From positions 639 to 64,638 of IMG/VR virus record IMGVR_UViG_3300033388_000874: a DNA stretch of 64,000 nt; one strand, 5' to 3'. A program made the position numbers and the translations under genes. The notes beneath the pieces were generated by a model. It ran no database searches, was not told where the DNA came from, and was given only the letters and a program-made list of their open reading frames with translations. Positions 3,965 to 54,442 of this stretch are shown piece after piece. This DNA comes from a virus. Position 1 is the stretch's first letter. Every line of letters begins with the position of its first letter.

Positions 3965-5083
3965 ATGGCTAACATTGTATTTACAAATAACGCAAGCGCA
4001 CTCCTTGCCGCTTCAATTGTACCCGCTGACACGACTATGCAAGTCGCTGTGGGTTTCGGTGATTTATTCCCCGTCGTAACCGCTCCGCAGTATGCGTACG
4101 CGACGCTGGAAGATGACGCAGGCGAACTTGAGGTCGTGAAGATAACTGCGCGAGCAGCCCTCAGTGATCTTTTGACAATCGTGCGGGCGCAGGAAGGTAC
4201 GACTGCTAAGAGCTTCACACTGTCTGTTACACGTGTTGAGCTTCGGCTGACGAAGGCGACGATGGAGGAGTTCGCGCAGGTCAACGGATTCACGATGACC
4301 GGCGACATCGACCTCAACCAGAACAACCTCGTCGACGCCCTTATCAACGGCGTGAATACTAGGATTACACAGGGCCAGATCGCTGGACTGCCATTGCGCG
4401 GTGCAGTCGATCTTACCTCGAATGAAATCGTCGTCCCCTCTGGTGGCGGTAGAGCCACTGCCGGTGGAGCCACACTGCTATTAACTGGTGATGACATAGT
4501 GGCTGAACTAGACACTGCTGGAATCATCATACTCAACAGCGCGACAGTGGGCGTACGTATCCCGGCCAGTGCTTACCTACGTGTGGAGGGTTCTACAACT
4601 GCCGAGTACTTTGAAATCACCCACGACGAAGTGGATGTGAATTTCGCGTTCGGTAACGCTGCCAACCTAAACCTCCCGATTATCCTGAACATGACTGATG
4701 TGATTCAGATGAATGATAACGAGGTACTTCGCGCACTGTTTGTTGACTTCGCGGTGAAGAAGCAGTCGGTGAGTGGAATTGCAACAACCGTTGTCGACTA
4801 TGAAGCTGGTTCGTATATCACGCTGACGCTTACCGCAGACATCGCCACACTCACCCTAGATAACCCACCAGCTACGGAAGTCGGCGTGTTCCGATTCAAG
4901 ATCATTCAGGATGCGACCCCCCGAGCGATTACATGGCCCGCTAATACAAAATGGCCCGAGGGTGGTCAAGCGCCCATACTAAGTGTTGGCCCCAGTTCCA
5001 TAGACTTCGTTGATCTCTGGACTGATGATGGTGGCGTAACTTGGTATGGTGGATTCAATGTGAACTGGACAGTACCAGTTTAG
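3965..5083 (+). CDS. hypothetical virion structural protein
   Basis: 372-aa ORF in the late operon; beta-rich composition. Confidence 0.45.
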   Translation: MANIVFTNNASALLAASIVPADTTMQVAVGFGDLFPVVTAPQYAYATLEDDAGELEVVKITARAALSDLLTIVRAQEGTTAKSFTLSVTRVELRLTKATMEEFAQVNGFTMTGDIDLNQNNLVDALINGVNTRITQGQIAGLPLRGAVDLTSNEIVVPSGGGRATAGGATLLLTGDDIVAELDTAGIIILNSATVGVRIPASAYLRVEGSTTAEYFEITHDEVDVNFAFGNAANLNLPIILNMTDVIQMNDNEVLRALFVDFAVKKQSVSGIATTVVDYEAGSYITLTLTADIATLTLDNPPATEVGVFRFKIIQDATPRAITWPANTKWPEGGQAPILSVGPSSIDFVDLWTDDGGVTWYGGFNVNWTVPV

Positions 5084-5094
5084 GGAGCGCAACC

Positions 5095-5586
5095 ATGTTT
5101 CCCTTTGCCAGCTTACTCAGCGGTAATTTTATAGATAGCTCCCTTGCCCTCCTTGGCACAGATGCCCCTGTAACTATTACTGGGACGAAGGGTGGTAGTA
5201 GCTTTGGTTGCGCTTACGCTGGGCTTATATTTCAAACCGATGGCGACCTATTGAAGCGACAAGGCGGGTCTGCTGATACTCCGTCAGCAGGTGCGGATGT
5301 ATGGATTCATAGTGATGTAAAACCCATCACAAATGCTGATGACTATGAGGTAAGGATAGTAATCATATCTGGCCCAACAGGTTCGGCGCTCCAAGGTTCC
5401 CATACTACAACGGTGTGGCATACAATAAATGCACAGATTAGCTGGTGGATTACATCTTGCGGTGATCGAACTGATGACACGACCAATACGGTCGACGTTG
5501 AGGTCAGCATCCGTAAGATTGCCGATCCCTTTAACACTGAGATAACAGGCGAGCTTACGTTCACTGCTCACTGGACTGGGGAGTAG
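5095..5586 (+). CDS. hypothetical structural protein
   Basis: ATG at 5095 preceded by GGGAG (track extends to a TTG at 5041 that overlaps the upstream gene); 163 aa. Confidence 0.4.
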   Translation: MFPFASLLSGNFIDSSLALLGTDAPVTITGTKGGSSFGCAYAGLIFQTDGDLLKRQGGSADTPSAGADVWIHSDVKPITNADDYEVRIVIISGPTGSALQGSHTTTVWHTINAQISWWITSCGDRTDDTTNTVDVEVSIRKIADPFNTEITGELTFTAHWTGE

Positions 5587-8232: not shown

Positions 8233-8837
8233 TGCCGCAAATTTCATTCAAACCGAACAAGGCTTATCCTTCGATACCTACGGTTGGTGACACACTGGAT
8301 TCACACTCCCGTGCGCTTGAGGCAATCAGGGAAGCTGTTCAGATTCACGAGCGCCGTACCAAGGATGTACTCGACAGCTTCGTGCGCGTGAACGAACTGG
8401 TTACTCTCGGTTTGATAAGTGTGGATGGAAACGTCGTTGAGGATGGTGGTAGTGACCAAGAGTCGACCACTCACGTCCACGACACTCTATACATACGTTT
8501 GGATGGTGCGTCACCCGCCGCAACGGGCCTAATCAACTTCGGTGCCGGTATTGATGTAACAGGTAACATAGGTGTGTCTGGAACTGTCGATGGCCGCGAT
8601 GTGGCCGCAGACGGTACCGCACAGGACTCCCATATCGCTGATACCTCGATACACCACGGCGATCATTCTGGTGAAGTAACTGGCGTGGCCGAGGTATTGA
8701 CGCTCGATGTGACATCTATTACTAACAGGGGTACCATAGTGGCTGATGCTGCTGACGAAGTTTCGTTGAAGGACGATTCCGATGGAACCCTACGCAAGAC
8801 TTCTCTCAACTCAATAACTGATGGCGGGTATTTCTAA
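8232..8837 (+). CDS. tail fibre-associated protein
   Basis: 201 aa; contains a 'VDGRDVAADGTAQDSHIADTSIHHGDH' type repeat common in phage tail-fibre proteins; ATGA overlap with the upstream gene. Confidence 0.45.
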   Translation: MPQISFKPNKAYPSIPTVGDTLDSHSRALEAIREAVQIHERRTKDVLDSFVRVNELVTLGLISVDGNVVEDGGSDQESTTHVHDTLYIRLDGASPAATGLINFGAGIDVTGNIGVSGTVDGRDVAADGTAQDSHIADTSIHHGDHSGEVTGVAEVLTLDVTSITNRGTIVADAADEVSLKDDSDGTLRKTSLNSITDGGYF

Positions 8838-10600
8838 TGGCGAACACAATTCGGATCACACGATCCAACTCAACTAACACTCCAGCTGCATTGGCGCAGG
8901 GCGAACTTGCTTTTTCTGAGTCGGACTCTGGCAACAGTGTCGGCGAATTATTTATCGGTATAGCTGGGCCGGGTGTCCAGAAGATCGCAACGCTTACCGG
9001 CGCTGCTGCTGCTGAACCGAATGATTCGGCACAGAACAACCAAACGATCACAACTGGCCTCGGCATCGATGGTGCGGAGGCTGGTGATTCTGGCAACATC
9101 ACAATTAGCTTCGACCCGAACGAGCTTGTCAATACATCCCCAGTAACCGCAGATTACATCGTCTTTGAGGATGTCACTGACAGCGCACCAAAGAAGGCAT
9201 TACTAAGTACCTTCCCTCTTGGCCTGTTCAGCAATGACCAGAACTGGAATAACTACACCCACCCCCATCACTCAGGACAGGTAATCTCGGTTAATGATGG
9301 TGCGCAATCTCTGCACGTTTCAGCCATCACAGCCCAACCTGCCAGTGGTGCCCTTATCGGCACTGATACGCTTCTGACTAACGATGGCGGCGTATTGTCC
9401 GAGTCCACGTTCAACCAGTTGGTGACATACTTCAACGCCAACCTGTCTTTCCCAGCCGAGGCTGACACGCTCGCGTTGGTAACTGGTCGTGGCGCAACAA
9501 CCGCAGTCGAGTCGACCTTCAGTGGTGGCCTCCTCATGGCCGACAGCAATATCAACCGTGCGGTGCTTGAAGACTTCGGTGTAACCCACCAAACACCGAC
9601 AGTATCGACAAACGCGGTTACGATCAATTGCACCCTCGGCAACTCCGTACTGATCGACCTCGACCCGGCTACGGCTGATGTTACCGTGACACTTAGCAAC
9701 CCACCAGCCTCGGGAACCTACGGCGAGTTAAGCATCGCCGTCGTTATGGGTACACCAGCCCACGGCATAACATGGCCGGGAACTGTTGTATGGATGGGCG
9801 GTGGCGCTCCGACTCTTACAACGACTAACGATGTGGTCGACCTCATTCATCTCTTTACAGTGGACGGTGGCACGATTTGGTTCGGTACTTACTCACTTGC
9901 CGCTGCGGGTGCTTCCGGTACATTGTCTGGATTGACGGATGTAACACTTACGACCCCCGCCGATGCTGACATGCTGTTGTATGACACAGGAACGTCCATG
10001 TGGCGCGATGCAACAATGTCCGGTGATGCTTCAATCATTGACGACGGTACCATCACGGTATCCAACTCGGCTGCACTGGGAGGCACCGCTGCCGCCAGTT
10101 ACGCCCTGATAGCTAACGCAGTGATGGAGGCTGATACTGCTACTACGGGCTGGGGCTTCGTTCTCGATCAGGACACACTTTCTGACGATTCAGATACGAA
10201 ATTAGCCACCCAGCAATCCATTAAGGCGTATGTAGATAATGCTGTAGTGGGTGGGATGACCCATAAAGGCGGATACAACGCAACGACTAACATCCCGGCA
10301 TTGGATACGGGAAGCCCAACACTGGTGAAGGGTGATTTATATACAGTCACCACTGGTGGTACGTTCTTCACCGTTGAGTTGGAGATTGGCGATACTCTGA
10401 TCGCTGATGTCGACTCGGTTGATGCAGCAAATGTAGGTGACTGGACTATCGTACAGACCAACATCGGTGCGGCGACCGAAGCGGTACCGGGTTATATCGA
10501 GCTTGCAACACAAGGCGAGATGGACACCGCTACCGACGATGCGCGGGCTGTTACCCCACTCAAGTACGCAAGCAGCACCATCGATGGGGGTACATTCTAG
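8837..10600 (+). CDS. tail fibre protein 1
   Basis: 587 aa; N-terminus 'MANTIRITRSNSTNTPAALAQGELAFSES' is the conserved tail-fibre N-terminal anchor motif; Gly/Thr/Ser-rich beta-rich body. Confidence 0.6.
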   Translation: MANTIRITRSNSTNTPAALAQGELAFSESDSGNSVGELFIGIAGPGVQKIATLTGAAAAEPNDSAQNNQTITTGLGIDGAEAGDSGNITISFDPNELVNTSPVTADYIVFEDVTDSAPKKALLSTFPLGLFSNDQNWNNYTHPHHSGQVISVNDGAQSLHVSAITAQPASGALIGTDTLLTNDGGVLSESTFNQLVTYFNANLSFPAEADTLALVTGRGATTAVESTFSGGLLMADSNINRAVLEDFGVTHQTPTVSTNAVTINCTLGNSVLIDLDPATADVTVTLSNPPASGTYGELSIAVVMGTPAHGITWPGTVVWMGGGAPTLTTTNDVVDLIHLFTVDGGTIWFGTYSLAAAGASGTLSGLTDVTLTTPADADMLLYDTGTSMWRDATMSGDASIIDDGTITVSNSAALGGTAAASYALIANAVMEADTATTGWGFVLDQDTLSDDSDTKLATQQSIKAYVDNAVVGGMTHKGGYNATTNIPALDTGSPTLVKGDLYTVTTGGTFFTVELEIGDTLIADVDSVDAANVGDWTIVQTNIGAATEAVPGYIELATQGEMDTATDDARAVTPLKYASSTIDGGTF

Positions 10601-11053
10601 ATGGGCTTTCTGGCAGGTGGGTACCATTCCAAAGGCTCCGGTGGCGGTGACGGTGCCGTAACGCTCAGCGGTGAGTTTGTATCTAGTGTCTGGACTGACG
10701 AGGTTGGAATCAGGTTCAATTCAGACGGCACCATAGATAGTAAAATCGGTGCCACCTACGCGCAGGTTGATGCTGGCACGGACTGGATTATTCCCAACGG
10801 GGATGCTCCCGGTCTGTACGAAATAATGACTGATAACTGGAATGACATCGGCGGTGATACTAAAGGGTTCGAGAATGCAGCCGCAGCAGAAGGTGTATGG
10901 ATCGCTTTAACTTCCAACCGGGAGTGGACTGTCAAAGGCACTGCTTCTGGCGGTGCTGATTCAAATATAATGCAATTTGATGCGCATATCCGCCACAACG
11001 CCTCACAACCACTCGCCTCGGGCGCGTACGAGATTGAATCCGAACTCGAATAA
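10601..11053 (+). CDS. hypothetical protein between the tail fibre genes (fibre assembly/adaptor candidate)
   Basis: 150-aa ORF, Gly-rich, tightly coupled. Confidence 0.4.
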   Translation: MGFLAGGYHSKGSGGGDGAVTLSGEFVSSVWTDEVGIRFNSDGTIDSKIGATYAQVDAGTDWIIPNGDAPGLYEIMTDNWNDIGGDTKGFENAAAAEGVWIALTSNREWTVKGTASGGADSNIMQFDAHIRHNASQPLASGAYEIESELE

Positions 11054-11068: not shown

Positions 11069-13165
11069 GTGGCTAACACGATAATTCTAAAGCAAAGCCC
11101 CACAGCCTCCAACGTCCCCACGTCGGGTGAGTTGGTAACGGGCGAGCTTGCGATCAATACCGCCGATAAAAAACTCTACTCGAAAGACGCGACTACAGTT
11201 TTTGAGATTGGTGGTGCTACGGCTGCTGCTGATGTTGGGGCGGGTGATCTTCCGTCAGATGTAATCCCATACGTCGCACTCCAAACCGGTAGCTCCGACT
11301 TCAAGGTGCCATTCTTAAATACGACCGGCAATGTTGCTGGCAACTTCGGCCTGCTCATGGACAATGGTGCAGCGCCAACCTATAACCCAGCGAGCAATTT
11401 ATTAAGTTCAGTAAACCTCGCAGGAGATTTCCCTCTCCCGCCACAGATGCTCTATGGGATGGGTGGCGACTACTCCTCAACTGGTGGCGCTGCTACGTGG
11501 GGCGCGACGATCTGGTCACTTGATACATCGTGGAAAGGTGGCGCTGCTGCCGTTAATTCTGTGTCGACCGGTGTCTATGGCCTACGCTGGCTCAGAGCCT
11601 CCCACGCAGAGGCTCACTCTCAGGTAGGCGAGGGGCTGTATGGCTATGTCAACAGCACTCAGTTATGGGGCGCTGGCGAAAGTGGCATTGCTATTTTCAA
11701 TGGTGATCGTTTCTCTGCCTACAGCGTTGGCAATGACAAAGTTGTCCAGATCGTCCACAACGATGTGGATGGAGTGATCGCTGCCTCAAGCTCTGGTGCG
11801 CTGCTGTTTACCACGGCAACGCACTTCTCATTTGATGACGATGTAATCACCACTGGTGGCATGTCTACCACTGGTGCCATCACCGACCACGGTCAGGTTG
11901 GACAGATAGCGCTGATGGATGTGACCTCTGGTGTCTCGCGTTTCGGCTCGTACAACTACGACACCTCTCTGTGGACACCTCTTGGTGTTCACGGCCTCGA
12001 TATTGAATACGAAGCAGCGAGCGGCACCGACTCTCACGTATGGAAAATAGCTTCTGCCGAACATCTCCGACTCGATTCTACTGGCCTAAAGATGCAGTTT
12101 GGAGGTACGACTGAAGGCTTCTTCATCTTCGCCAGTGGCGACCAGACAATTATACGGCCACGAGATGCCGCTGGCACCGCATGGGACTCAACAGCCGATC
12201 TTAGCTATGACAGGTCGAGTAACCGCTGGCGATTTGATACGCCTCTCGACATTGAAGGAGCGATCTATACGTCCACAACCCATGCGAACTGGCAGACTGC
12301 ATACACGTATGTAAACAACCTTACGGCAACCGAAGCTGAACTGAACTTACTCGATCTTTCCGGCTTGACTGCCGGATGGGTACTATCTGCTGATACGGCT
12401 ACAACTGCGAGTTGGAAAGCACCCGCTGGTGGTGGTGGCACCGTCTCAGGCACAGGCACCGATAATTTCCTCGCTGTCTGGAATGGCACGGCTAACATCG
12501 ATGCAACTGGCAGCTTCCTAATCACAAACGCTGTCGATAAGACGGCAACCGAAACTGTGACCGGGGCATGGGGGTTCTCACACGCCACGTTCGGCACGTT
12601 CAACATCAACTGTATAAGCACTACCCAAGCAGCAGCGATTAAGTACAGCAACACGGATGGGGTCAAAGGCTATGCCGGATTCCATGACACATTAGGATTT
12701 AAGGTCTGGAACACCGGAGGGTCAGACTCGGGTTTCGCCGTAAGCATCGCCGGTGCTATCACTGCTGTCAGTTATGGTGGTATCGCGTCGGCTGACCTAC
12801 TCGACAAGGCTGCTGCTGAAGTGGTCACTGGTGCATGGAGCGTACCCTCTCTAATTGTCGCCAAGACTGCCAGCTACACGATGATCCTTACCGACGCTGG
12901 TCAGACCGTGAGATTTACAGGTGCGACTGCATCGAAGGTTTGCACGATCCCCGCGAACAGTTCGGTGGCCTACCCAATCGGCACGATGATCGGAATAACA
13001 AACGATGGCTCGGTGACGATGACCCTCGCGATCACCACTGACACACTGACATGGGGCAAGGACAACACGACCGGCACCCGAACGCTGGCCGCTGGCGCTG
13101 ACTGCGTGATCCATAAGACCACGGCGACCACTTGGAAGATTAACGGCTCAGCCTTGGTGACTTAA
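11069..13165 (+). CDS. tail fibre protein 2
   Basis: 698 aa; N-terminus 'MANTIILKQSPTASNVPTSGELVTGELAINTADKKLYSKD' repeats the anchor motif of 8837..10600; Gly/Thr-rich. Confidence 0.6.
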   Translation: MANTIILKQSPTASNVPTSGELVTGELAINTADKKLYSKDATTVFEIGGATAAADVGAGDLPSDVIPYVALQTGSSDFKVPFLNTTGNVAGNFGLLMDNGAAPTYNPASNLLSSVNLAGDFPLPPQMLYGMGGDYSSTGGAATWGATIWSLDTSWKGGAAAVNSVSTGVYGLRWLRASHAEAHSQVGEGLYGYVNSTQLWGAGESGIAIFNGDRFSAYSVGNDKVVQIVHNDVDGVIAASSSGALLFTTATHFSFDDDVITTGGMSTTGAITDHGQVGQIALMDVTSGVSRFGSYNYDTSLWTPLGVHGLDIEYEAASGTDSHVWKIASAEHLRLDSTGLKMQFGGTTEGFFIFASGDQTIIRPRDAAGTAWDSTADLSYDRSSNRWRFDTPLDIEGAIYTSTTHANWQTAYTYVNNLTATEAELNLLDLSGLTAGWVLSADTATTASWKAPAGGGGTVSGTGTDNFLAVWNGTANIDATGSFLITNAVDKTATETVTGAWGFSHATFGTFNINCISTTQAAAIKYSNTDGVKGYAGFHDTLGFKVWNTGGSDSGFAVSIAGAITAVSYGGIASADLLDKAAAEVVTGAWSVPSLIVAKTASYTMILTDAGQTVRFTGATASKVCTIPANSSVAYPIGTMIGITNDGSVTMTLAITTDTLTWGKDNTTGTRTLAAGADCVIHKTTATTWKINGSALVT

Positions 13166-13419
13166 TGAGTAGTTTGCTGATGAAAAAATTCAGCCTTTTC
13201 GGTGATGCTGGGGTAGCGGATACCGTCACGTTGGAGATCGCTTCCTGTTACGACTCAAGTGATACAGGTGGTGGCGCTAACGCTAGGATTAGGGCTTACG
13301 ACTTAACTAACGCTACGCGAAAGGGCGAGGTATGGAACGAACTTGGTTATCCCTGCTACAAATATCGAAAACTACCAGATGAAGTGGGAGGCTCTATCTG
13401 GGTCAACTCCAAACGATAA
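13165..13419 (+). CDS. hypothetical small protein
   Basis: 84-aa ORF, ATGA overlap with the tail-fibre stop; overlaps 13343..13609 in the +1 frame. Confidence 0.3.
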   Translation: MSSLLMKKFSLFGDAGVADTVTLEIASCYDSSDTGGGANARIRAYDLTNATRKGEVWNELGYPCYKYRKLPDEVGGSIWVNSKR

Positions 13420-13609
13420 CAGCGTGGCTGTCAGTACATGGCAGGCATTAGGCCCAACTGACTTTTTCATTGGTTGGGATGCGCCGGGTGATGATGACTC
13501 AAGGTTTGGCACCGCTACTGTGAGCATACGCAAAGGAACCGGCTCTACACTTGACTCAGCCGTATGGGATGGCGATGTCTCATCCACACCCCCAGAAAAG
13601 GATAAGTAA
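13343..13609 (+). CDS. hypothetical small protein (possibly the 3' part of a frameshifted gene)
   Basis: 88-aa ORF in the +1 frame relative to 13165..13419, overlapping it by about 77 nt. Confidence 0.25.
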   Translation: MVIPATNIENYQMKWEALSGSTPNDNSVAVSTWQALGPTDFFIGWDAPGDDDSRFGTATVSIRKGTGSTLDSAVWDGDVSSTPPEKDK

Positions 13610-14352
13610 TGATACTTTCACACAGCAAGAAGTTTGTGTTTTTTCGCAATGCCAAGTCAGGCAGTACGACTGCACAAGTCATGTTGCGTATGTTCGGAGG
13701 GTTTGACCCAGCGGTTGACATGCTCAGTGGAACACGGGAGTGGTCACTGCCACCCATCAATATCCCCGGCAGCATCGAAGGTAGGACGTACGCGGGGCCA
13801 ACCATCGCCCGAGAGGGCAGGATGAACTGGCACCATGCGACACCGCAGCAGCTTATAGACCGTGGCGTGATAACGCTTGAGCAATTACGTGAGTATGATT
13901 GCTGGGCCTATGTTCGTGACGTACGGTACAGATTTATCTCCGGGTGCATTCATATGTCTAGAAGTGACAGGGGGCCAATGTGGAAGTACGGAGTGAACCC
14001 AGAAATGTTTTTGAAGCGATTCAAGGATAAAGAGAGATTGTTCTCCCCGACTGAAATCATTGGCAGATCACAAAGAGATTGGTTCTTCGTCGGGGACGAG
14101 CAGGTTGTCAAGCCGGTCGTATTCGATAATTACGAGAATGAGCTACGTTTCTTGATCGACAGAGTTGGGGGGTTTCGGCCACCGGAGATACCGAAGCTAA
14201 ACACGGCTCCGCATCACACACGACAGCACATCGAAAAATGGAAAGCGTGGTACGCCGAGGCTTGGGAGCATCCAGAAATTAGCAGTGCCATATTGGAACA
14301 GTACGCCGAAGACGAGGCGTTTTACCAACAAGCAATAGCTGACCGAGCATGA
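13609..14352 (+). CDS. sulfotransferase-family protein (moron)
   Basis: 247 aa; 5'-PSB-like P-loop 'FVFFRNAKSGSTT' near the N-terminus and 3'-PB-like 'YVRDVRYRFISGCIH' (RDPxxRxxS pattern); local GC lower than the flanking structural genes. Confidence 0.6.
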   Translation: MILSHSKKFVFFRNAKSGSTTAQVMLRMFGGFDPAVDMLSGTREWSLPPINIPGSIEGRTYAGPTIAREGRMNWHHATPQQLIDRGVITLEQLREYDCWAYVRDVRYRFISGCIHMSRSDRGPMWKYGVNPEMFLKRFKDKERLFSPTEIIGRSQRDWFFVGDEQVVKPVVFDNYENELRFLIDRVGGFRPPEIPKLNTAPHHTRQHIEKWKAWYAEAWEHPEISSAILEQYAEDEAFYQQAIADRA

Positions 14353-14579
14353 TGAGATACCTAATCATAATTCTTCTCCTGTCGGCATGCACACCCATGA
14401 CTATCGAAGAAAGGGAGGAACGCGAGTATAGGCGGGAGGAGCAGGCAGAAGCGTGGCTCCTGTATAAAGAGTCATGTGTATCCAACGGCGGATATGTCTA
14501 CGTCCAATCACATGGTTCCCTTACGCATGGGGGTGTGCCTGCTCGCGGCGATAGGGCTTACTGCGTTACCAAGCCGTAA
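14349..14579 (+). CDS. small lipoprotein
   Basis: 76 aa; 'MMRYLIIILLLSAC' signal peptide with lipobox LSAC; ATGA overlap with the sulfotransferase stop. Confidence 0.5.
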   Translation: MMRYLIIILLLSACTPMTIEEREEREYRREEQAEAWLLYKESCVSNGGYVYVQSHGSLTHGGVPARGDRAYCVTKP

Positions 14580-14585
14580 TACCGC

Positions 14586-14882
14586 TTGCTCGATGGGGTT
14601 ACGATGGGCTACAATCACCCACTCCTAAAACAGAGAGACAAAACCATGAATAGACAGCAAGTAGAAATGGCCGTAGGTGCTGGCCTTGAATTGCTCGGTG
14701 ATAATTCCGACATCGCGATCCCCGCAAAGTTGCTAAGTGGAACCTTCCTTTTGAAGCAACTCCTACTGGCAATTGGTCAGGGTCAGATGGGCCTCACGCC
14801 CACAGCACAAACACCACCGCAACCGGAGCTTACCCCGGTTGACCCCAGCATCGATCCGCCGGGCGAACCTGAAGAAGAATAA
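14586..14882 (+). CDS. hypothetical protein upstream of the endolysin (start uncertain, ATG at 14647 is an alternative)
   Basis: ORF with amphipathic central segment and Pro-rich acidic tail (TPPQPELTPVDPSIDPPGEPEEE); stop overlaps the endolysin start. Confidence 0.35.
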   Translation: MLDGVTMGYNHPLLKQRDKTMNRQQVEMAVGAGLELLGDNSDIAIPAKLLSGTFLLKQLLLAIGQGQMGLTPTAQTPPQPELTPVDPSIDPPGEPEEE

Positions 14883-15409
14883 TGATCGACGACATCATCA
14901 CTGATGTTATGAAAGCGGAGGGTTGGGACAAGTACACCAACCGACCGAACGACCGTGGTGGCCCTACGAAGTGGGGCATCACACTGAAGGCTTGGAGTGA
15001 GTGGCGAGGGCGGGATTGTTCCGCTGAAGATGTCAAAGCGATCACTGAGCCACAGGCACGGCAGTTCTACGAAACGGAGTACGTTCTGGCCCCTCGCTTC
15101 CATCATTTACCTGAAATGGTTCGTGCTATGGTCATTGACTGTGGTGTGAATCATGGCCCTCGTGCTGCTTCCAAGTGGGTGCAGCGAGCCATAGGAGTCA
15201 GGCAGGACGGCGTTCTTGGCCCTATAAGTATACAAGCAGCCGCAGACTGTAACCCTATAGCTATACACCTGAAGGTAAGTGCGTCCCGCATTAAGCTGTA
15301 CGGAAGGCTCGTCACCAAAGACCCAACACAAGCTGAATTTGCCCACGGATGGAACAATCGTGCGGCTAAATGGCTGGAAAGGCTTGCCCAGTCTCTAACA
15401 GGTGGGTAG
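14882..15409 (+). CDS. endolysin, GH108-type lysozyme with PG_binding_3-like domain
   Basis: 175 aa; 'AEGWDKYTNRPNDRGGPTKWGIT' matches the GH108 EGGYxxDPxDPGGxTKYGIT signature; 'RQDGVLGPISIQAA' matches the peptidoglycan-binding repeat. Confidence 0.75.
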   Translation: MIDDIITDVMKAEGWDKYTNRPNDRGGPTKWGITLKAWSEWRGRDCSAEDVKAITEPQARQFYETEYVLAPRFHHLPEMVRAMVIDCGVNHGPRAASKWVQRAIGVRQDGVLGPISIQAAADCNPIAIHLKVSASRIKLYGRLVTKDPTQAEFAHGWNNRAAKWLERLAQSLTGG

Positions 15410-16124: not shown

Positions 16125-16373
16125 ATGTCAGATAAAGATGAGAAGGAAATCCTTCAACGGGTTGCGCGGCTTGAGCAGAGGGTCGACGACCGCAAGGAGA
16201 TCGACAAAAAGCGTGAGTCACAGATGGAGTCGATCAACTCCAAGCTGGACAGGATGGAACTTGACCTCGCTAGATACCGAGGTCTTGTTGGTGGCGTACT
16301 TCTTGTGGTTACTGCTATCGTGAGTTTTGCGAAGTTCTTCTGGGAAGACACCATTAAATTTTTTGGAAAATAA
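16125..16373 (+). CDS. small coiled-coil protein with C-terminal TM anchor
   Basis: 82 aa; charged heptad-like N-terminus, then LVGGVLLVVTAIVSFAKFFW. Confidence 0.4.
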   Translation: MSDKDEKEILQRVARLEQRVDDRKEIDKKRESQMESINSKLDRMELDLARYRGLVGGVLLVVTAIVSFAKFFWEDTIKFFGK

Positions 16374-16375
16374 TA

Positions 16376-16902
16376 TGAATGCACAGCTACAACAAAAGAT
16401 GCCAATATACTATTTCCACCCGCCGATCATCAAAGATGGGATCGCGATTGGACTTGAACATTTTTCAGATATGCAGGATGAAATTTATCCTCTGCATGAG
16501 GCGCATTATAACGAGACAGAAGTGCTTTATCTCGATGAGCCATTCAACCCAAATTATGAACGGTACTTCCCGATGGAGAAGGATGGTTCGTTTGTATGCT
16601 TCACCGTCAGGATTGGGTGGCAGATGGTCGCCTATATCCAGTACTATATTTATCAGGACTTGCACAGCCGCACCATTATGAATGGCAGGGAGGACGCATT
16701 CTTTGTGCATCCATCCGCTAGGAGTAAGGGAGTTGCGGGGCAGCTACTTACCTATGCAGAAGAAGCACTGGCGAGGGCAGGATGCAAGTACGTAGGCATG
16801 ACTACCAAGGCACCGTTGGGCGGTGTTGATATTGGGCCGTTCTTAGAGCGGAGAGATTACCGTCCTTGTGCTGTATATTACCAAAAGAAACTCACGGAGT
16901 AA
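16376..16902 (+). CDS. GNAT-family N-acetyltransferase
   Basis: ATG at 16376 after the previous stop (track extends to 16327); acetyl-CoA motif A 'HPSARSKGVAGQLL' and GNAT-like length (about 175 aa). Confidence 0.6.
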
Positions 16903-17985: not shown

Positions 17986-19775
17986 TGTCAGGTATAGGAG
18001 CAGGTGCGTTCGTTGAAGGTCTACAAGGTGGCATTGCTTCACGTGATGCGATGGATCGCAACAAGCAATTCAAGCAAATGCGTAAGCTCGGTATCACTGA
18101 GAAGAAATACGAGTTAGCCGACAAGCGCGGTATAGCCGAAGCCGATTTAATGATGCAGGCAAAAGAAGGCGGCTATGACTTCGACCAAGCTGGGTTTGAT
18201 GAGGAATGGGCTGCATTCCAAGATGACAAAGACCCGGCCCTCCTCCGTTTCGGTAAGTGGATGGGTGGGAAGATGAGCGGTATGTTCGGCGGTAAGGGAG
18301 AAGAAGGAGGCTCTGAAGCACAGATGGCGATTGCCACTCCAAAAGTCGAGGCTCCAACGCCTGTTGAACGGTTCGGTGCATATGCTGATGGCGGCATTGT
18401 CCCCCATGGACGTTACGCGAATGGTGGTGTGGTTGATGACCCCACTGCCCCACGACCTTACTCTGACCCACGTCGTAGGAGAGAGGAAACTGAATCAGTT
18501 CTATCGGACTTGGCTCGTGCTACTAAAGAGAATGCGTTCGATGACACAGTAAATGTATGGCGCGGAGCCGATGATGCGATGTCCGAACGTAGTCAAGCCA
18601 TCAGTGATGCGGAAGGCCCACGTGAAACGATGGACGCAGTTCGTGGCTGGATGGGAGAGGGCATTAGAGGCACTGCTGCGTTAGGCGCAGGGCTGGTTAA
18701 AGATGTGGTTATCGATAATCCTGTCGTGCAAGGTGCGATGGGGTTCATGGGGTTTGATGGAGAGGGTTCGGAAGCACCCGCCGCAGATCAGGGCATACCC
18801 ACAACTGACGTACCGAGTACGCCGGAAGGTGATGCTATTGGTGCATCTGTTGATGAGCCAGAAAATAAACCCGAAGAAGTCGCACAACAGGCAGTTAGAA
18901 GTGCGGAAGAAGAATTTATAAAGAACCCCAATTACACATTGTTGGTCGATCAGGGCGTACGTCCCGAAGACCTTCCATCCATGACTACACAGGATTGGTC
19001 TGACTATCGTCGCAAGATAACCATGCATGCCATGCGTCAAGGCTCAACCCCGGCTGAAGCGCACCAGATGGTTGATAATCGTGTTACCCAAATGCAAATG
19101 GCTGGGTTCAATCGTCAAGCGATGATTGCCAATAAATACCTCCAGTCTGGACAAGCACGTGAAGCGTCAATGGCGCTGCGTCAGGCTTATCAGTATTTCC
19201 CCAATGGCGTAAGTGTCAAGTTTGGTAATACGGTTGATCCAAAGACAGGGCAGTCAGTCATCATCACTATGGGCGTCGATGAGGAGACTGGGGAGGCAAC
19301 TGGCACTCCTATGATTATCGATGTGAATCGCCTGAATGCAATGGTGGAGAACGCAAGTGATCCTTCCGCATTTCGTTCATGGACAAAGGACGGTCACGAT
19401 CTGCAAATGGAGATCAACAAATTGCAGTCCATCGATGACTACCGACAGGGTACTTTGGACATCGGTGCCTACAGAGCCGAGACTGGTCGTATAGGAGAGT
19501 TGACTGGCGGTGGGCGCGGTGCGATGACTGATGCGGAAGTTCGGCAAAGGAGCGAACTTTACATGAAGGTAGTGAATGAAGCCGGTCTAATGGAAGGTAT
19601 CGAGGGGCTTGATGAGGGCATAAACGCCCGAGCTTTGTATGATGCGATGGCGCAATACGAAAGGGTATCTGGAATAAGGGAGCCAGCTACCGTCGCCCGC
19701 AGAGTGCTTGAGGCTTATCAACTTAACCCCGACACCGGAGTACAAGAACTACTGGCAAACGCACGGGATCAGTAA
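17985..19775 (+). CDS. virion-associated protein (internal/ejected protein candidate)
   Basis: 596 aa; contains 'ADGGIVPHGRYANGGVVDD' related to the motif in 16909..17985 and 59748..60002; ATGA coupling. Confidence 0.4.
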   Translation: MSGIGAGAFVEGLQGGIASRDAMDRNKQFKQMRKLGITEKKYELADKRGIAEADLMMQAKEGGYDFDQAGFDEEWAAFQDDKDPALLRFGKWMGGKMSGMFGGKGEEGGSEAQMAIATPKVEAPTPVERFGAYADGGIVPHGRYANGGVVDDPTAPRPYSDPRRRREETESVLSDLARATKENAFDDTVNVWRGADDAMSERSQAISDAEGPRETMDAVRGWMGEGIRGTAALGAGLVKDVVIDNPVVQGAMGFMGFDGEGSEAPAADQGIPTTDVPSTPEGDAIGASVDEPENKPEEVAQQAVRSAEEEFIKNPNYTLLVDQGVRPEDLPSMTTQDWSDYRRKITMHAMRQGSTPAEAHQMVDNRVTQMQMAGFNRQAMIANKYLQSGQAREASMALRQAYQYFPNGVSVKFGNTVDPKTGQSVIITMGVDEETGEATGTPMIIDVNRLNAMVENASDPSAFRSWTKDGHDLQMEINKLQSIDDYRQGTLDIGAYRAETGRIGELTGGGRGAMTDAEVRQRSELYMKVVNEAGLMEGIEGLDEGINARALYDAMAQYERVSGIREPATVARRVLEAYQLNPDTGVQELLANARDQ

Positions 19776-22700
19776 TGTCAATCGCAGGTTTAGAGGATTA
19801 TCTGAATCGAGAGTTCGGTGAGCTAGACGAAGGAAGTCTGGAGCGCCAAACTGGTCGACGTGCAGATCGTCTTCTCGCAGAAGCACCAAGTTCAGCCTCC
19901 ACCACCGAAGTAGCGTCTGGTATCCCTGAGTGGAATCCGCCTGCTTCGGGTGGCGGTGGTCTTGACGACAATGCGGGACTCGGTGACGCAGCCAAGTTGT
20001 TCGCGGCTGGCAGTGTCGGTGTCGGTGAAGCTGTTGTTGGTGCTGGTGAGTATCTGGCGCGTCAGAATAAATTCACTCGCGGTACATTCGTTCAGGAAGG
20101 TCTAGGGGCTGCACGTAAAAGTATCGGCGGTTTCCGTGAGGCTATTATTGAGAGCGTCGACCCTGATGCAATGGATCGTGTTGGCCGTGAGTGGCTGAGT
20201 ACCGATCCGAGCAATACGATCTGGCAGGGTAGCCCTGTTGAGTTTGCGTCATCTGTTGGGATGAAGATGGCGCAGATGCTTCCATCCACACTCGCCACAC
20301 TTGCACCAGCAGCGGTATGGTTCCGTGGAGCGCAAGCCGGTAAAGCTCTTGCATACATGGGCGCGTCCGAAGCTGGCATCACAATGGGCAGCATCGCCAA
20401 TGGAATCTCAGATGAGATCGAGCAGACTCCCCACGAAGACCTAATGGCAGGGTCGCAGCGGTATAAAGTCATATACGGACAATTGGGTGACGAAGACGCT
20501 GCCAAAGACCAACTCATTACTGAGGCGCAGGGTGCAACACCAGCAGCCGCCGCCGCTTTCGTCGCTGCCATATCTATTACAGCCGGTCGCTATCTTGAAC
20601 CCGTGTTCCTCAAGACAGGTACACTCGGTCGATTCGGAGGCAAGGGTGGACTAGGAGCCGGTCAGCGAGTTGGGCGGGGCTTCCTTGCCGAAGCTGCACA
20701 GGAAGGCCCGCAGAGTGCAGGTGAGCAGCTTGCGACGAATATGTCGGCCAAGCTATACGATGAGAATAGGAACCTCTCAGAAGGCGTAGCAGAGGCTTCT
20801 GTTGAAGGTGCCATCATGGGTGGCCTGACAGGTGGTGCATTCACTGGAGCTATGGGCCAACGGCCTACAGCCCCGCCACCCCCACCCGTTGTCGAGGAAG
20901 GAGGCCAACAAGGTCTACCGGGTTTCGGCCCACAGGTTCGTGAGGAAGGGTTCGGTATTGAGCCGGAAGGCTATCGCGGCGATCCCAACCCACAGGAACA
21001 GTACGTTCCAGACACAGGTATGGGACTCCAGACAGAGTTCTTCCCTGATCCGGGTACGACGGAAGCCGTCATGGTTCCCGAGGAACAAGCACCGGGACAA
21101 GGAGTCCTGCCGCTGGGCATTGCTGGTACTGAGTCGTTGGCCGAGCGCGGCCCCGATCACCGTACACTCCAAGAGGGTGACATCGTACCTGACGAGATGG
21201 ATCAGCCTACCGCTGAGCCTGTCGAGGATATTCAGGCGCAGCTTGCAGACATGAAGGGTGCAAGTGGCCGCAGTGCGGTATACGTGTCACCAGCACAACG
21301 CAACGACAACTACCAGATTCCGAAGGGTGCGGTAGAAATCCGTAACTTCGATGGCAAGGGCGGTACGCTCATTGCTAAGAACCAAGCCGCTGCCGATCAT
21401 GCGCGCAAGATACGTGCTAGTGGTGGATCGATGCAGGCCATTATCGGTGAACTGACGATGGCTGGCGCAGGCAAACCAAACGTCAGAGCCGGATACGCAG
21501 TGCAGTTGGTTGATGAATCTGGCGCAGTGGCACGTGAGTCTTTGGTACGTACGAAGGCAGAGGCCACCGCGCTTGAGAAGCAGTGGGCACCGGACGGTAC
21601 GACACGTGTGTTGTCAGGGCCAGAAGCACTAGCGCGGCGTGGCGCGAAGATCGAGGAGGAGCAGCTTAACCTACGTACGGAAGACCCGGCACTGGTTGAC
21701 GAAGCAACACCTGATATGTTCGCACCGGGTCAGGCACCAACGCTCACAGCCGCCGAGAACCAGTCGGAGGGCGGTGCGTTCCAAGTCCAAATGAAAGACG
21801 ATGCCGGTAACGAGATCGTCACTGAAACTTTCGACACAGTGGAGGAGGCAGAAGCACGGGCAGATGAACTCGCTAAAGACTTTCCAGATGGGAACATTAC
21901 ATCCAAGCAACTGCGGGTGGAGGCAGCACCCGATAAGGCTGGCCTCTCTACTACGAAGCGTGTACCGAAGAAGGTACTTAAGGGGCCACCTGAAGGCCCG
22001 CCGACAGGTATGGATAAGCCAGAAGTGTCGACAGAACGTACACGTCCCCCGGAAGTGTCGATAGCACCGGAAGAATTCGACGAGACACAATCCGTCAAGG
22101 ACATTGAAAACCTCCCAGACTTCAGGGCACATTACAGCGTTATCACCGAGGAAGCGCAGCCGAACAAAACGACGAAGGTTGTGGAGACACGTGAGTCCCG
22201 CAAGTTCACCAGTAGGCAGCAGGCCCGATCATACGCAACACGTATGACGAATAAGGCAAGGGCGGCTGCACCAAAAGACTTCGATGTTACGGAAGGCAAG
22301 GTTGACGCGGTTGAATCGCCCGAGCTTGAGGGCCAGTTCGCGTCGGCGTTGCAGTCGAGAGCGGATCGTAAGCAGGAGACAACTGCCGAGGAAGAAGGCA
22401 AGAAGGTCGGCCACTTCATAAGCGATAAAGCCGTCTCCACCACTGGGGAAGGAGTTACCGACACGAGCAGGCAACTGACTGCTGAGTATCGTGCGCAGAA
22501 CACCAGCCCATCACAGAAGGTTCAATTCATACGTCGTGAACGTGCGTCGGTGTTACGCCGTCGTGCGCCGGTCAAGAATGTTGGTGCCGCCAAAGCGACC
22601 ACCGTCAAGAAAGGCGGCGGTACACAAGAGACAGAGACTAAGGCGCTGACCTATGAAACGGTAAGCGGCGAGGAGACAACCGAACAAACTACCAAGCGGA

Positions 22701-30660: not shown

Positions 30661-30918
30661 TTAAATTGGTCGGTTATTCGCGTTACGTTTATACGAGCGA
30701 TTGGTCTTGCGACTGACCACCCGCTGATTCGATTTGGCATTAGACCCACCGTTCGATAGAGCCTTCTTGTGATCTACCTCTTTTCCATCGCCCTTATGAA
30801 CTCGGCCCTCTCGCTCGGCGTCTTTACGAGCTTTATTCCGCATGGCTCGCTGTCGCTTGGCCTTTGCGGTGCCGTGGTACTTGTCATAGTAGGCTTTGGA
30901 TTGCTCTCGGGTTCCCAC
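30661..30918 (-). CDS. degenerate HNH-motif protein
   Basis: 'VDHKKALSNGGSNAKSNQRVVSRKTNRSYKR' aligns to the HNH core (v)DH..PLS.GGS...SNL...C..CNR.K with the Cys ligands replaced by Ser/Thr; Lys-rich N-terminus; the N-terminal 145 nt overlap 30774..31391 in another frame, so the true start may be internal. Confidence 0.4.
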   Translation of the reverse strand: MGTREQSKAYYDKYHGTAKAKRQRAMRNKARKDAEREGRVHKGDGKEVDHKKALSNGGSNAKSNQRVVSRKTNRSYKRNANNRPI

Positions 30919-31391
30919 TGCGTATCCTCAATAGTGTACTGATGGGGACTCTCGTCCTCGTAGATTGACTGCAAGTATCGCACAATCGGGGCCAGCGCAT
31001 CAATAGTTTCAGACACAGGTGCAGAAGGTGGGCGGTCATCGTTCAGCTTCCCCACTGCCCGAGCGTCGAGGATTATGGCAGAGCATGCCATTACTGAGGC
31101 GAGGTGTGGCACACCTGTTACGGGGTCAACCTCCTCGCCATTCTTCCACTTCTCCATGTGCCGCTCCATCGCATCCAGATAGATCGACGCACGAACACCA
31201 GCCACCCGCCAGTTGTATTTACCATACTTGAGAGCGCCTTCGAGGAATGCTAGGGCCATGAACGCCTTCGCCGTGCCGGGGATCAGATGCATCGGCAGCT
31301 TGGTTGAGCCGATTGCATCTTTCGGATTAGTAGGCTTCGTCTCTGCACGTTGCCGATGATTCGTAGCTAAGTCACTCATTACTTTGTCCAT
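30774..31391 (-). CDS. DUF5664-like protein (phage dATP/dGTP diphosphohydrolase N-terminal domain-like)
   Basis: 'KLPMHLIPGTAKAFMALAFLEGALKYGKYNWR...GVPHLASVMACSAIILDA' matches my recollection of the conserved K.P..L.P...A...A.V...GA.KYG..NW...H...H core; low-complexity C-terminal tail; not database-checked. Confidence 0.45.
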   Translation of the reverse strand: MDKVMSDLATNHRQRAETKPTNPKDAIGSTKLPMHLIPGTAKAFMALAFLEGALKYGKYNWRVAGVRASIYLDAMERHMEKWKNGEEVDPVTGVPHLASVMACSAIILDARAVGKLNDDRPPSAPVSETIDALAPIVRYLQSIYEDESPHQYTIEDTQWEPESNPKPTMTSTTAPQRPSDSEPCGIKLVKTPSERAEFIRAMEKR

Positions 31392-54234: not shown

Positions 54235-54442
54235 GCCGCTACGAGTACAACTAACAATAAGTGCGTGGGGCGAGACGACCACTGACGAAGATATCGCGGT
54301 GTATGGGTCAGCAGTAAAATTCATGGCTATCTGGTTGATGAAACAAGATGGCGCGATGGGCAAGGACACCGAAGCCCTACTTAACGAATTCAAACATAAC
54401 GTCTGCACTGCAATGAGAGTGGGCGTACAGGGGACAGGGTAA
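54224..54442 (+). CDS. hypothetical small protein
   Basis: 72-aa ORF, coupled to neighbours. Confidence 0.3.
   Translation: MTSEPLRVQLTISAWGETTTDEDIAVYGSAVKFMAIWLMKQDGAMGKDTEALLNEFKHNVCTAMRVGVQGTG

Follow-up and report, generated by a model that had tools for sequence, protein, structure and literature searches.

The window, the 64,000-nucleotide stretch of viral DNA analysed here, carries on its + strand a run of genes leading from the tail fibres to lysis. The upstream anchor of this region is fib2 (11069..13165, +), a tail-fibre gene of 698 aa whose N-terminus matches tail-fibre PHROGs; another tail-fibre-like gene lies upstream at 8837-10600. Comparison of fib2 with the L008 contig, which is about 99% identical to the window over the common part, revealed a 45-bp in-frame tandem-duplication polymorphism. 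The C-terminal 138 aa of fib2 are 89% identical to L004, whereas the backbone virion protein of L004 is only 32% identical, which shows mosaic exchange. The next gene is a disrupted copy of p150 (13165..13609, +), a fibre-associated gene of 150 aa. Relative to L008, it carries a 29-bp deletion with the junction between 13340 and 13341 (+/-2, AC microhomology), and because of this deletion the gene is split into two overlapping ORFs, an N-fragment at 13165-13419 and a C-fragment in the next frame at 13343-13609. The p150 HMM recognizes both fragments (E 5.7e-15 and 2.4e-35, respectively), and intact counterparts in the alignment comprise 152 aa in L008 and 150-160 aa in L001, L004 and L006. The window encodes further p150 paralogues at 10601-11053 (E 6.7e-43) and, with weak similarity, at 5041-5586, each located after a fibre-like gene.

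The original prediction, made from the letters of the window, placed a sulfotransferase-family moron and a small lipoprotein at 13165-14579, inserted directly after the tail-fibre genes and before the lysis cassette. The position between fibre and lysis genes was correct. However, the interval opens with 445 nt (13165-13609) that are the broken p150 and not part of an insert, so that p150 separates the sulfotransferase gene from the tail-fibre gene before it. The ORF itself was found as described at 13609..14352 (+) and encodes 247 aa whose sequence shows neither a signal peptide nor a transmembrane segment. At its 5' end the start codon overlaps the stop of the preceding gene (TAATG), and at its 3' end the stop codon overlaps the start of the following gene (ATGA). 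We identified 14 homologues with E-values from 1e-50 to 1e-168 and 354 family representatives at E<=1e-3 among 1.84 billion proteins; together with a dN/dS of 0.06 against an 80%-identical copy, these numbers indicate that it is not a chance ORF. The gene looks intact despite its divergence, and a tblastn search against 50,697 cultured-phage records returned no match. The visibly lower GC content that had been claimed for the gene was not borne out: its GC of 0.509 lies at the 28th percentile of 744-bp windows taken across the whole stretch (mean 0.522 +/- 0.025). At 0.577 its GC3 cannot be called low, and its codon-adaptation index of 0.72 falls inside the range of the neighbouring genes.

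Sequence, profile and fold evidence support assignment of the ORF to the sulfotransferase family, within the Sulfotransfer_2 (PF03567-like) superfamily, in agreement with the predicted enzyme class. The window protein gave no match to Pfam, NCBIfam or PHROG even at E<=1, thus staying below the Pfam gathering threshold for PF03567, and no match to PDB sequences when searched alone. Its relatives, in contrast, match Sulfotransfer_2 in 10 of the 15 members of a close family alignment (E<=1; best E 6e-12) and in 49 of the 59 sequences of a broad alignment (E<=0.001; best E 7.5e-11), and for the L023 orthologue the score is 42.5 bits, above the PF03567 cut-off of 22. As the window protein is 39-50% identical to PF03567-positive proteins, with E-values down to 1e-65, its membership follows by transitive homology; no search assigned it to a P-loop family other than sulfotransferases. 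The family profile matched solved sulfotransferases, with E 5e-6 for 3rnl and more weakly for HS6ST (E 0.05) and HS2ST (E 0.4); although weak, the latter alignments span the Lys of the 5'-phosphosulfate-binding region (PSB), the His and the Arg/Ser of the 3'-phosphate-binding region (PB). The overall alpha/beta fold of the predicted structure is most similar to solved sulfotransferases, and the best viral structural matches (BFVD, E 2e-5 to 1e-2, probability about 1.0) are annotated sulfotransferases. The subfamily is divergent and essentially confined to viruses.

Both predicted PAPS-binding signatures were located, FRNAKSGSTT at residues 12-21 and VRDVRYRFIS at residues 102-111, and we compared them with the definitions of the PSB and PB features of the sulfotransferase fold (PMC11625862). 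The 5'-PSB strand-loop-helix (13633..13671, +; residues 9-21, FVFFRNAKSGSTT) reads FVFFRNAKSGSTT, with K16 as the conserved basic residue, and is modelled as a strand at 9-12 and a helix at 19-28, at a pLDDT of only 60-75 in this N-terminal region. Position 16 is Lys in all 15 close members, and Lys in 49 and Arg in 10 of the 59 broad members. The segment aligns with HIQKTGGTT of HS6ST and RVPKTASTS of HS2ST. The 3'-PB strand-turn-helix (13912..13941, +) carries R103, R108 and S111, conserved in 58, 56 and 57 of the 59 sequences, respectively; the model places a strand at 97-102 and a helix at 105-119 that bears the Ser and Arg. It aligns with LRNPVDRAFS of 3rnl, LRDPVSRYLS of HS6ST and IRDPIERLVS of HS2ST. 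The full PxxRxxS consensus is absent, as the window protein has V105 where 54 of the 59 relatives have Pro, a loss common to its closest relatives P0001-P0003; this Pro is an element of the sequence logo and lies outside the minimal PB definition (PMC11625862). The 15-member family shows no variation at K16, G18, S19, T20, T21, R103, R108 or F109, and S111 occurs in 14/15. The sole column invariant in 59/59 sequences is His76 (13834..13836, +), which the profile alignments pair with the His in HS2ST 'HGH' and in HS6ST 'GLHADW'. Since HS2ST, HS6ST and SULT enzymes use a His base (PMC11625862), His76 is the candidate catalytic base.

Downstream of the sulfotransferase gene lies an ORF for a small lipoprotein (14349..14579, +) of 76 aa, or 75 aa from the second ATG at 14352. 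As predicted, it is coupled to the sulfotransferase gene, with its ATG overlapping the stop codon (ATGA/ATGATG). A pattern check recognized a positively charged n-region, a hydrophobic h-region and the lipobox L-S-A-C, which conforms to [LVI][ASTVI][GAS]C (MMR-YLIIILL-LSAC); the sequence MMRYLIIILLLSA directly precedes the lipobox Cys14, encoded at 14388-14390, and the mature protein would comprise 63 aa with two further Cys. Among 5.8 billion clusters its sole match was itself. L008, otherwise almost the same in sequence, has another lipobox ORF (…LIMLVSC…) at this place, and its identity to the window collapses some 20 codons ahead of the stop of the sulfotransferase gene, near 14290. The lipoprotein is an unrelated orphan occupying a hypervariable slot. 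We also considered an o-spanin (Rz1-like), which the protein resembles as a small lipobox protein near an endolysin with Cys in its mature part. Its gene is neither embedded in nor adjoining an i-spanin gene and lies upstream of p98 and the endolysin, and the 63 mature residues include only 3 Pro and a strongly charged, probably helical segment. Its replacement in L008 by an unrelated lipoprotein would also be unexpected for a subunit that must co-evolve with its partner, and an o-spanin is unlikely on all these counts. The downstream edge of the variable slot is p98 (14637..14882, +; probable start MNRQQ at 14637), a conserved small backbone gene whose homologues directly precede the endolysin in L006, L023, L024 and L027, whether the sulfotransferase is present or not. 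The lysis region starts with the endolysin at 14882..15409 (+), which contains GH108 and PG_binding_3 domains (Pfam E 4.8e-23 and 1.7e-09; PHROG 315 endolysin, E 6e-39).

Comparison across related loci revealed that the sulfotransferase gene is part of a swappable receptor-binding cassette, composed of a fibre, one or two p150 genes, the sulfotransferase and sometimes a 2OG/Fe(II) oxygenase. In every sulfotransferase-positive locus of the lineage (L001-L009, L023, L037) p150 is directly upstream, and in L009 the sulfotransferase is flanked by p150 on one side and by a further fibre-like gene on the other. The oxygenases of L004, L006 and L023 retain a complete HxD...H triad, and their nearest relatives, at weak similarity, are protein Asp/Asn beta-hydroxylases. 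The cassette is missing as a unit in the closest backbone relatives: L024, L025 and L027-L031, with virion proteins 52-74% identical, carry no sulfotransferase, p150 or oxygenase, and their slot holds unrelated receptor-binding genes. L026 gave no match either, on a sequence that includes no more than about 2 kb ahead of the gene for the virion protein and does not cover the slot. Of the features of a moron, accessory presence and absence among close relatives was observed, though only together with the whole fibre/p150 cassette. An autonomous unit was not: the gene ends overlap those of its neighbours, and a consensus scan of 13000-14900, which is weak evidence, detected no promoter- or terminator-like sites on the + strand. 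Lacking these flanking signals and any deviation in nucleotide composition, it does not qualify as a classical moron.

The uncultured source phage is apparently a virulent, marine-type podovirus. It has an SU10-like portal and adaptor and also encodes a primase-helicase and a DNA polymerase of family A, and its closest cultured relatives are virulent Rhizobium podophages, on the basis of which the host is likely alphaproteobacterial. Sulfation of LPS and K-antigen is known in rhizobia (KpsS and NodH, cited in PMC11625862). None of the 30 scanned ORFs of the window matched an integrase, and this finding, with the virulent appearance of the phage, weakens the analogy to seroconversion drawn in the original prediction. 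Companions for PAPS synthesis or sulfur metabolism (cysC, cysDN, cysH) were not found among the scanned ORFs either.

Based on these data, we propose, with a probability of about 0.6, that the gene encodes a soluble PAPS-dependent O-sulfotransferase within an exchanged receptor-binding cassette, that its acceptor is a host envelope glycan and that the lipoprotein is a separate orphan. The cassette is embedded in the late structural operon of the SU10-like phage. In the cytoplasm, Lys16 of the 5'-PSB and Arg108/Ser111 of the 3'-PB helix would hold host-made PAPS as in HS2ST and HS6ST, and His76, by analogy with the same enzymes, would deprotonate the acceptor hydroxyl for in-line sulfuryl transfer. 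The acceptor would most likely be a sugar hydroxyl of a host glycoconjugate, namely a precursor of LPS, capsule or EPS that faces the cytoplasm. This glycan would be of the type recognized by the linked fibres, so that its sulfation would alter the receptor presented by infected cells and by the debris of lysis.

The fibre and p150 proteins stand beside the host envelope glycan as leading acceptor candidates. It is less likely that the enzyme modifies the linked tail fibre or p150 by Tyr/Ser/Thr O-sulfation and thereby tunes receptor binding or virion surface charge; in relatives the hydroxyl might be installed by the neighbouring 2OG oxygenase. The strict co-occurrence with p150, the start/stop overlap in all positive loci of the lineage and the loss of the set as a unit agree with such a role, as do the location in a late block of structural genes, the position between p150 and another fibre-like gene in L009 and the cytoplasmic location that the enzyme shares with unassembled fibres. 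The p150 proteins also have one Tyr in common that never varies and whose surroundings are often acidic (e.g., E-N-Y-Q-M-K-W-E, E-D-Y-E-M-K-W-E), and the oxygenase of L004, L006 and L023 combines its intact triad with a weak resemblance to enzymes that hydroxylate proteins. This Tyr is nevertheless more likely structural in a small beta-rich protein, the p150 model (pLDDT 50) is too poor to judge its surface exposure, and the adjacent p150 copy of the window is broken while the sulfotransferase is intact. Furthermore, PF03567 enzymes of known substrate act on carbohydrates (PMC11625862). Other observations touch on the host glycan itself and speak against it: a late structural block in a seemingly virulent phage would leave little time for surface remodelling, no glycosyltransferase or polysaccharide-export gene accompanies the cassette, the translationally coupled p150/fibre linkage suits modification of a phage protein equally well, and the relatives' oxygenase is weakly nearest to protein hydroxylases. 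We know of no precedent for sulfated phage virion proteins. The more specific idea of a virion-maturation enzyme that O-sulfates the co-inherited fibre or p150, in relatives possibly after AspH-like 2OG hydroxylation, is doubtful; if true, it would be the first known enzymatic sulfation of a phage receptor-binding apparatus and a new route to tuning host recognition.

An auxiliary metabolic role, in which the enzyme sulfates a small molecule (metabolite, signal, lipid or antibiotic-like compound) unrelated to adsorption and lies beside the fibres because the site is an insertion hotspot, appears unlikely. The slot before p98 and the endolysin does behave as a hotspot, holding two different lipoproteins, small TM peptides, the oxygenase or another fibre. 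Distant viral homologues occur in unrelated contexts (after a Gp23-type capsid gene, beside a TylF-like O-methyltransferase gene, after a giant FG-GAP protein gene), and virome papers count sulfotransferases among AMGs. Within the lineage, however, the gene is never found apart from p150, which a random hotspot would not predict, and the absence of cys genes among the scanned ORFs argues in the same direction. We regard it as very improbable that the protein is no sulfotransferase at all, being instead another P-loop NTPase/kinase or a dead relic kept for structural reasons. The failure of the window protein itself to match Pfam, NCBIfam and PHROGs and the missing PxxRxxS Pro would fit this idea, but the homology to PF03567-positive proteins is unambiguous, the loop reads KSGST and not Walker A GxxxxGK[ST], the protein retains the Lys of the PSB, the His at the catalytic position and the Arg/Ser of the PB, and the dN/dS is 0.06.

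Sulfotransferases of phages had been called rarely described. Many genomes of phages and giant viruses already have genes annotated to this enzyme class, of which the window gene is a further member; what holds is that none has been characterised, nor does any phage sulfotransferase have an identified acceptor (PMC10580990). Annotated examples include Synechococcus phages S-T4 and ACG-2014f, Prochlorococcus phage P-SSM7, Ralstonia phage phiRSL1, uncultured Caudovirales, giant viruses and the Sulfotransfer_3 genes of OM43 phages. They share a virus-encoded PAPS-sulfotransferase fold with the window protein at 10-18% identity, and lie in capsid-adjacent or hypervariable AMG regions, in contrast to the tail-fibre/p150 cassette of SU10-like podoviruses. 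Identity to HS2ST and HS6ST (PF03567; PDB 3f5f/4ndz, 5t03) and to the uncharacterised bacterial 3rnl is only 11-18%. Animal PF03567 enzymes carry a type II membrane anchor, whereas the 247-aa window protein is soluble and has none; the parts that bind the acceptor (residues about 30-75) show no relationship to each other and came out poorly in the model, and the PxxRxxS Pro and the Pfam detectability of PF03567 enzymes are absent.

Receptor-modifying or receptor-blocking genes tied to receptor-binding genes are found in other phages, as O-antigen acetyl- and glucosyl-transferases in temperate phages of the P22/Sf6 type and as the lipoproteins Llp of T5 and Cor of phi80/N15. The window shares with these systems a presumed envelope-directed accessory gene beside receptor-binding genes, exchanged together with them, and a small lipoprotein directly next to the fibre module; by analogy with Llp and Cor, this lipoprotein may be an envelope-targeted exclusion factor. 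Neither sequence nor profile comparison revealed similarity to these genes, and the chemistry here would be sulfation. The compared systems act in a lysogen or from an early promoter, whereas the window phage is apparently virulent and its cassette presumably expressed late.

The candidate sulfotransferase ORF (13609-14352, + strand, 247 aa) lies downstream of two tail-fibre-like genes with PHROG tail-fibre matches (8837-10600 and 11069-13165, the second referred to as fib2) and upstream of a small conserved gene, p98 (14637-14882), which is followed by a GH108/PG_binding_3 endolysin gene (14882-15409). Between fib2 and the sulfotransferase, the fibre-associated p150 gene is present as two + strand fragments, an N-terminal ORF of 84 aa (13165-13419) and a C-terminal ORF of 88 aa (13343-13609) that overlaps it in another frame. 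A lipoprotein ORF (14349-14579, + strand, 76 aa; N-terminus MMRYLIIILLLSAC) follows the sulfotransferase. The sulfotransferase start shares bases with the stop codon of the C-terminal p150 fragment (TAATG), its stop shares bases with the start of the 76-aa ORF (ATGA, with a second ATG next), and an AAGGA Shine-Dalgarno sequence of its own is located 6 nt upstream. FRNAKSGSTT occupies residues 12-21 of the 247-aa ORF and VRDVRYRFIS residues 102-111, both motifs being exactly those quoted as PAPS-binding signatures in the original prediction.

When used directly as a query, the window protein had no match in Pfam (E<=1), PHROGs, NCBIfam or PDB (phmmer), so its link to Sulfotransfer_2 (PF03567) is visible only through homologues and family profiles. 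Fourteen metagenomic homologues were retrieved with 45-99% identity (E 1e-50 to 1e-168), and an exhaustive profile search of 1.84 billion proteins gave 354 representatives at E<=1e-3, including 38 at E<=1e-30. PF03567 was matched by 10 of the 15 members of the close alignment at E<=1 (best E 6e-12) and by 49 of the 59 members of the broad alignment at E<=0.001, a threshold at which no other family was matched; the orthologue from the relative L023 scored 42.5 bits, above the cut-off of 22. The profile of the close alignment gave only spurious matches in PDB, and the 59-sequence profile reached a solved bacterial sulfotransferase (3rnl, E 5e-6) and, more weakly, the heparan sulfate 6-O- and 2-O-sulfotransferases. 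In the alignments to these heparan sulfate enzymes, K16 is aligned with the lysine of the 5'-PAPS-binding strand-loop-helix (PSB), H76 with the His of the 'HGH' (HS2ST) and 'GLHADW' (HS6ST) segments, and R103, R108 and S111 with the helix of the 3'-PAPS-binding element (PB). Across the broad alignment, H76 is the sole invariant column (59/59), every sequence has K or R at position 16, and R103, R108 and S111 are each kept in 56-58 of 59. The gene has a dN/dS of 0.06 relative to the 80%-identical copy in L037, with dS near saturation at ~2.1. Neither the region nor the sulfotransferase was matched in the cultured-phage collection at DNA or protein level, and scanning of genome contigs with the close alignment returned one weak match, in a Pelagibacteraceae single-cell assembly.

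The predicted fold points in the same direction. The AlphaFold model (pLDDT 77, pTM 0.76) contains the PSB strand-loop-helix (strand 9-12, helix 19-28) and the PB strand-turn-helix (strand 97-102, helix 105-119). Foldseek similarity to PDB entries was weak (3rnl, E 0.012), yet sulfotransferases were ranked at the top, and among predicted viral structures the top matches were annotated viral sulfotransferase-family proteins. The polysaccharide sulfotransferase family has been defined by a PSB Lys/Arg, a PB-helix Ser, beta-sheet architecture and a His or Glu base (PMC11625862); all of these features are present here, with Lys in the PSB and His at the base position. The window protein departs from PF03567 in that Val replaces the Pro of PxxRxxS, and its own score is below Pfam detection. 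The assignment to sulfotransferases proposed in the original prediction is thus upheld, since family members match PF03567, the broad profile reaches 3rnl and both PAPS-binding elements are modelled, and no P-loop family other than sulfotransferases emerged. On sequence and model, the 247-aa protein belongs to the Sulfotransfer_2 superfamily as a divergent and probably active enzyme.

Genes for a portal and an adaptor of SU10 type, a major head protein and internal virion proteins occur in the window, as do those for a primase-helicase, a helicase and a DNA polymerase of family A. A 2676-aa ORF (19775-27805, + strand) has orthologues of 2085-2815 aa with an SLT lytic transglycosylase domain in relatives, and presumably encodes an internal virion protein that is ejected. 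The closest cultured relatives are Rhizobium podophages of roughly 61 kb, whose capsid protein is 47% identical, and they do not carry the sulfotransferase; an alphaproteobacterial host is likely. Neither an integrase nor a PAPS-pathway gene was detected among the ORFs scanned in the window, and the tRNA scan found none. The phage is probably virulent, which weakens the analogy to seroconversion that had been drawn from the position of the gene. Separately, the N-terminal domain of dATP/dGTP diphosphohydrolase (PF18909, E 1e-24; MazZ-like) was found at 30774-31391 (- strand); domains of this type are associated with phage genomes containing 2-aminoadenine (Z-base), and the scan of large ORFs gave no PurZ-like match. 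A DUF2201 metallopeptidase/VWA-like protein (43895-45166, - strand) and an SPFH/Band 7 protein (54442-54996, + strand) are also encoded.

The original prediction had regarded the sulfotransferase as a moron with visibly lower GC than its neighbours. Its GC content of 0.509 lies at the 28th percentile of the window (mean 0.522 +/- 0.025 in 744-bp windows), which rules out an argument for foreign origin from GC; GC3 is 0.577, the codon-usage index is inside the range of the neighbouring genes, and the + strand has no promoter-like or terminator-like site from 13000 to 14900. The gene is therefore ordinary in composition and embedded in an operon, and neither the GC contrast nor the status of an autonomous moron was borne out. 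Local GC of 0.43-0.47, below that of the sulfotransferase, was observed at a GNAT acetyltransferase gene (16327-16902, + strand) that has the lysis genes on one side and the internal virion protein genes on the other; unlike the sulfotransferase, it is kept across the backbone relatives (49-65% identity).

When 37 fetched loci were searched with the window proteins by tblastn and HMM, p150 was present in one or two copies directly 5' of the sulfotransferase in every locus of the lineage that carries the latter (L001-L009, L023 and L037), and the start and stop codons at the junction usually overlap. Seven backbone relatives (L024, L025 and L027-L031), in which identity is 52-74% for a 358-aa virion protein and reaches 76% for the internal virion protein, lack the sulfotransferase, p150 and the oxygenase found beside the sulfotransferase in some positive loci. 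In these relatives the slot from the internal virion protein to p98/endolysin is filled by unrelated genes, for example a single 1551-aa protein in L027, proteins of 1439, 338 and 306 aa in L024, and only 114 and 138 aa in L028. L026 also gave no match, but only ~2 kb of it precedes the virion protein gene, and the slot falls outside. L004 has a distant backbone, with only 32% identity in the virion protein, yet three of its genes are closer to those of the window: fib2 is 89% identical over its C-terminal 138 residues, p150 is 62% identical and the sulfotransferase 46%. Joint presence and absence, together with this mosaic of identities, argue that the sulfotransferase is an accessory member of a swappable host-range cassette rather than a solitary insert. 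Distant viral homologues occur in heterogeneous gene contexts, and our search found no universal partner gene among them. In two T4-like contigs with Gp23 capsid (L016:5940-8717 and L019:5969-8762) a distant homologue lies directly 3' of the major capsid gene, and in L013 a homologue adjoins a TylF-like O-methyltransferase.

In relatives, a single gene of 150-160 aa occupies the position directly 5' of the sulfotransferase, and L008, ~99% identical to the window over the shared part, has an intact 152-aa p150 there. DNA alignment with L008 revealed that 29 bp (ACAGGATGGCACTTACGCATTCAGTCATG) are absent from the window between 13340 and 13341; because this loss shifts the frame, p150 is split into the 84-aa and 88-aa ORFs. 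Either a genuine defective variant or an error of assembly could account for the deletion. The window also contains an intact p150 paralogue (10601-11053) and a weaker one (5041-5586), and each of the three, including that at 13165-13609, is directly 3' of a fibre-like gene. The p150 proteins share an N-terminus of MG[FML]LAGG...GSGG and an invariant Tyr-x-x-K/x-W motif, with [DE]-x-Y-[QE]-M-K-W-[ED] as a conserved segment, and have no Pfam or PHROG assignment. The p150 model is all-beta, but with a pLDDT of 50 from a 5-sequence alignment it is below usable quality; a chaperone or a distal fibre subunit may be considered. In fib2 (11069-13165), a 45-bp in-frame indel near ~12801 distinguishes the two sequences, L008 having a perfect tandem duplication (CGACAAGGCTGCTGCTGAAGTGGTCACTGGTGCATGGAGCGTACC x2) and the window one copy.

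The slot directly after the sulfotransferase is hypervariable among these loci. It holds the 76-aa lipoprotein gene in the window, a different small lipobox ORF in L008, small TM peptides in L001 and L037, another fibre-like gene in L009, and a 2OG/Fe(II) oxygenase in L004/L005, L006/L007 and L023. Identity between the window and L008 (~1857 onward) drops from ~100% to random near 14290, ~20 codons before the sulfotransferase stop, which marks a sharp recombination breakpoint. The lipoprotein matched only itself among 5.8 billion clusters, and is best viewed as an independent, quickly replaced, envelope-targeted accessory protein. A role as o-spanin is unlikely in view of position, composition and replacement in L008, and an exclusion role like that of Llp/Cor is speculation. 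The oxygenase (L004:8704-9276, L006:7959-8297 and L023:5907-6545), which has no copy in the window, retains an intact HxD...H triad and a conserved Arg and resembles Asp/Asn beta-hydroxylases; the L023 protein matched Pfam Asp_Arg_Hydrox (E 6.5e-6), and the oxygenase shows a weak likeness to human AspH in PDB (E 0.014).

The sulfotransferase has intact PAPS-binding and catalytic-position residues, its sequence has no signal peptide or TM segment, and it sits in a late-operon position, inherited along with the fibre and p150. It may act as a cytoplasmic enzyme that transfers sulfate from host PAPS to the hydroxyl of an acceptor; His76 would then serve as the base, and Lys16 would stabilise the leaving group. 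Co-inheritance of the enzyme with the fibre/p150 set narrows the hypotheses on its acceptor to two, the receptor and the proteins that bind it. A host surface glycan is the leading candidate, and with such an acceptor the enzyme would represent receptor editing by a virulent phage. Modification of the fibre or p150 themselves is a minority reading to which we give roughly one chance in four; it is favoured by the strict p150 linkage, by late co-expression and, in relatives, by an oxygenase that resembles protein hydroxylases, and a fibre acceptor would constitute a new virion post-translational modification. An unrelated small molecule as acceptor, from which the co-inheritance leads away, or lost activity in a protein with these residues intact, takes up the remainder.

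Many phages already have annotated sulfotransferase-fold genes, for example S-T4, ACG-2014f, P-SSM7, phiRSL1, uncultured Caudovirales, OM43-phage contigs and glacier-ice viruses, and such genes occur in giant viruses as well. The 'sulfotransferases' of Burkholderia and Ralstonia phage papers are really PAPS reductases, another family. The acceptor is known for none of the annotated viral sulfotransferases, which are as a rule catalogued as 'auxiliary metabolic genes'. What the present comparison of sequences adds is the obligate tie to the fibre/p150 cassette within the lineage and the tie to the 2OG oxygenase in relatives; at present this is a well-supported annotation in an interesting context, short of discovery. 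Among viral sulfotransferases the subfamily offers an unusually clean genetic handle, always inherited with one tail-fibre/p150 type in the lineage and sometimes with a 2OG oxygenase.
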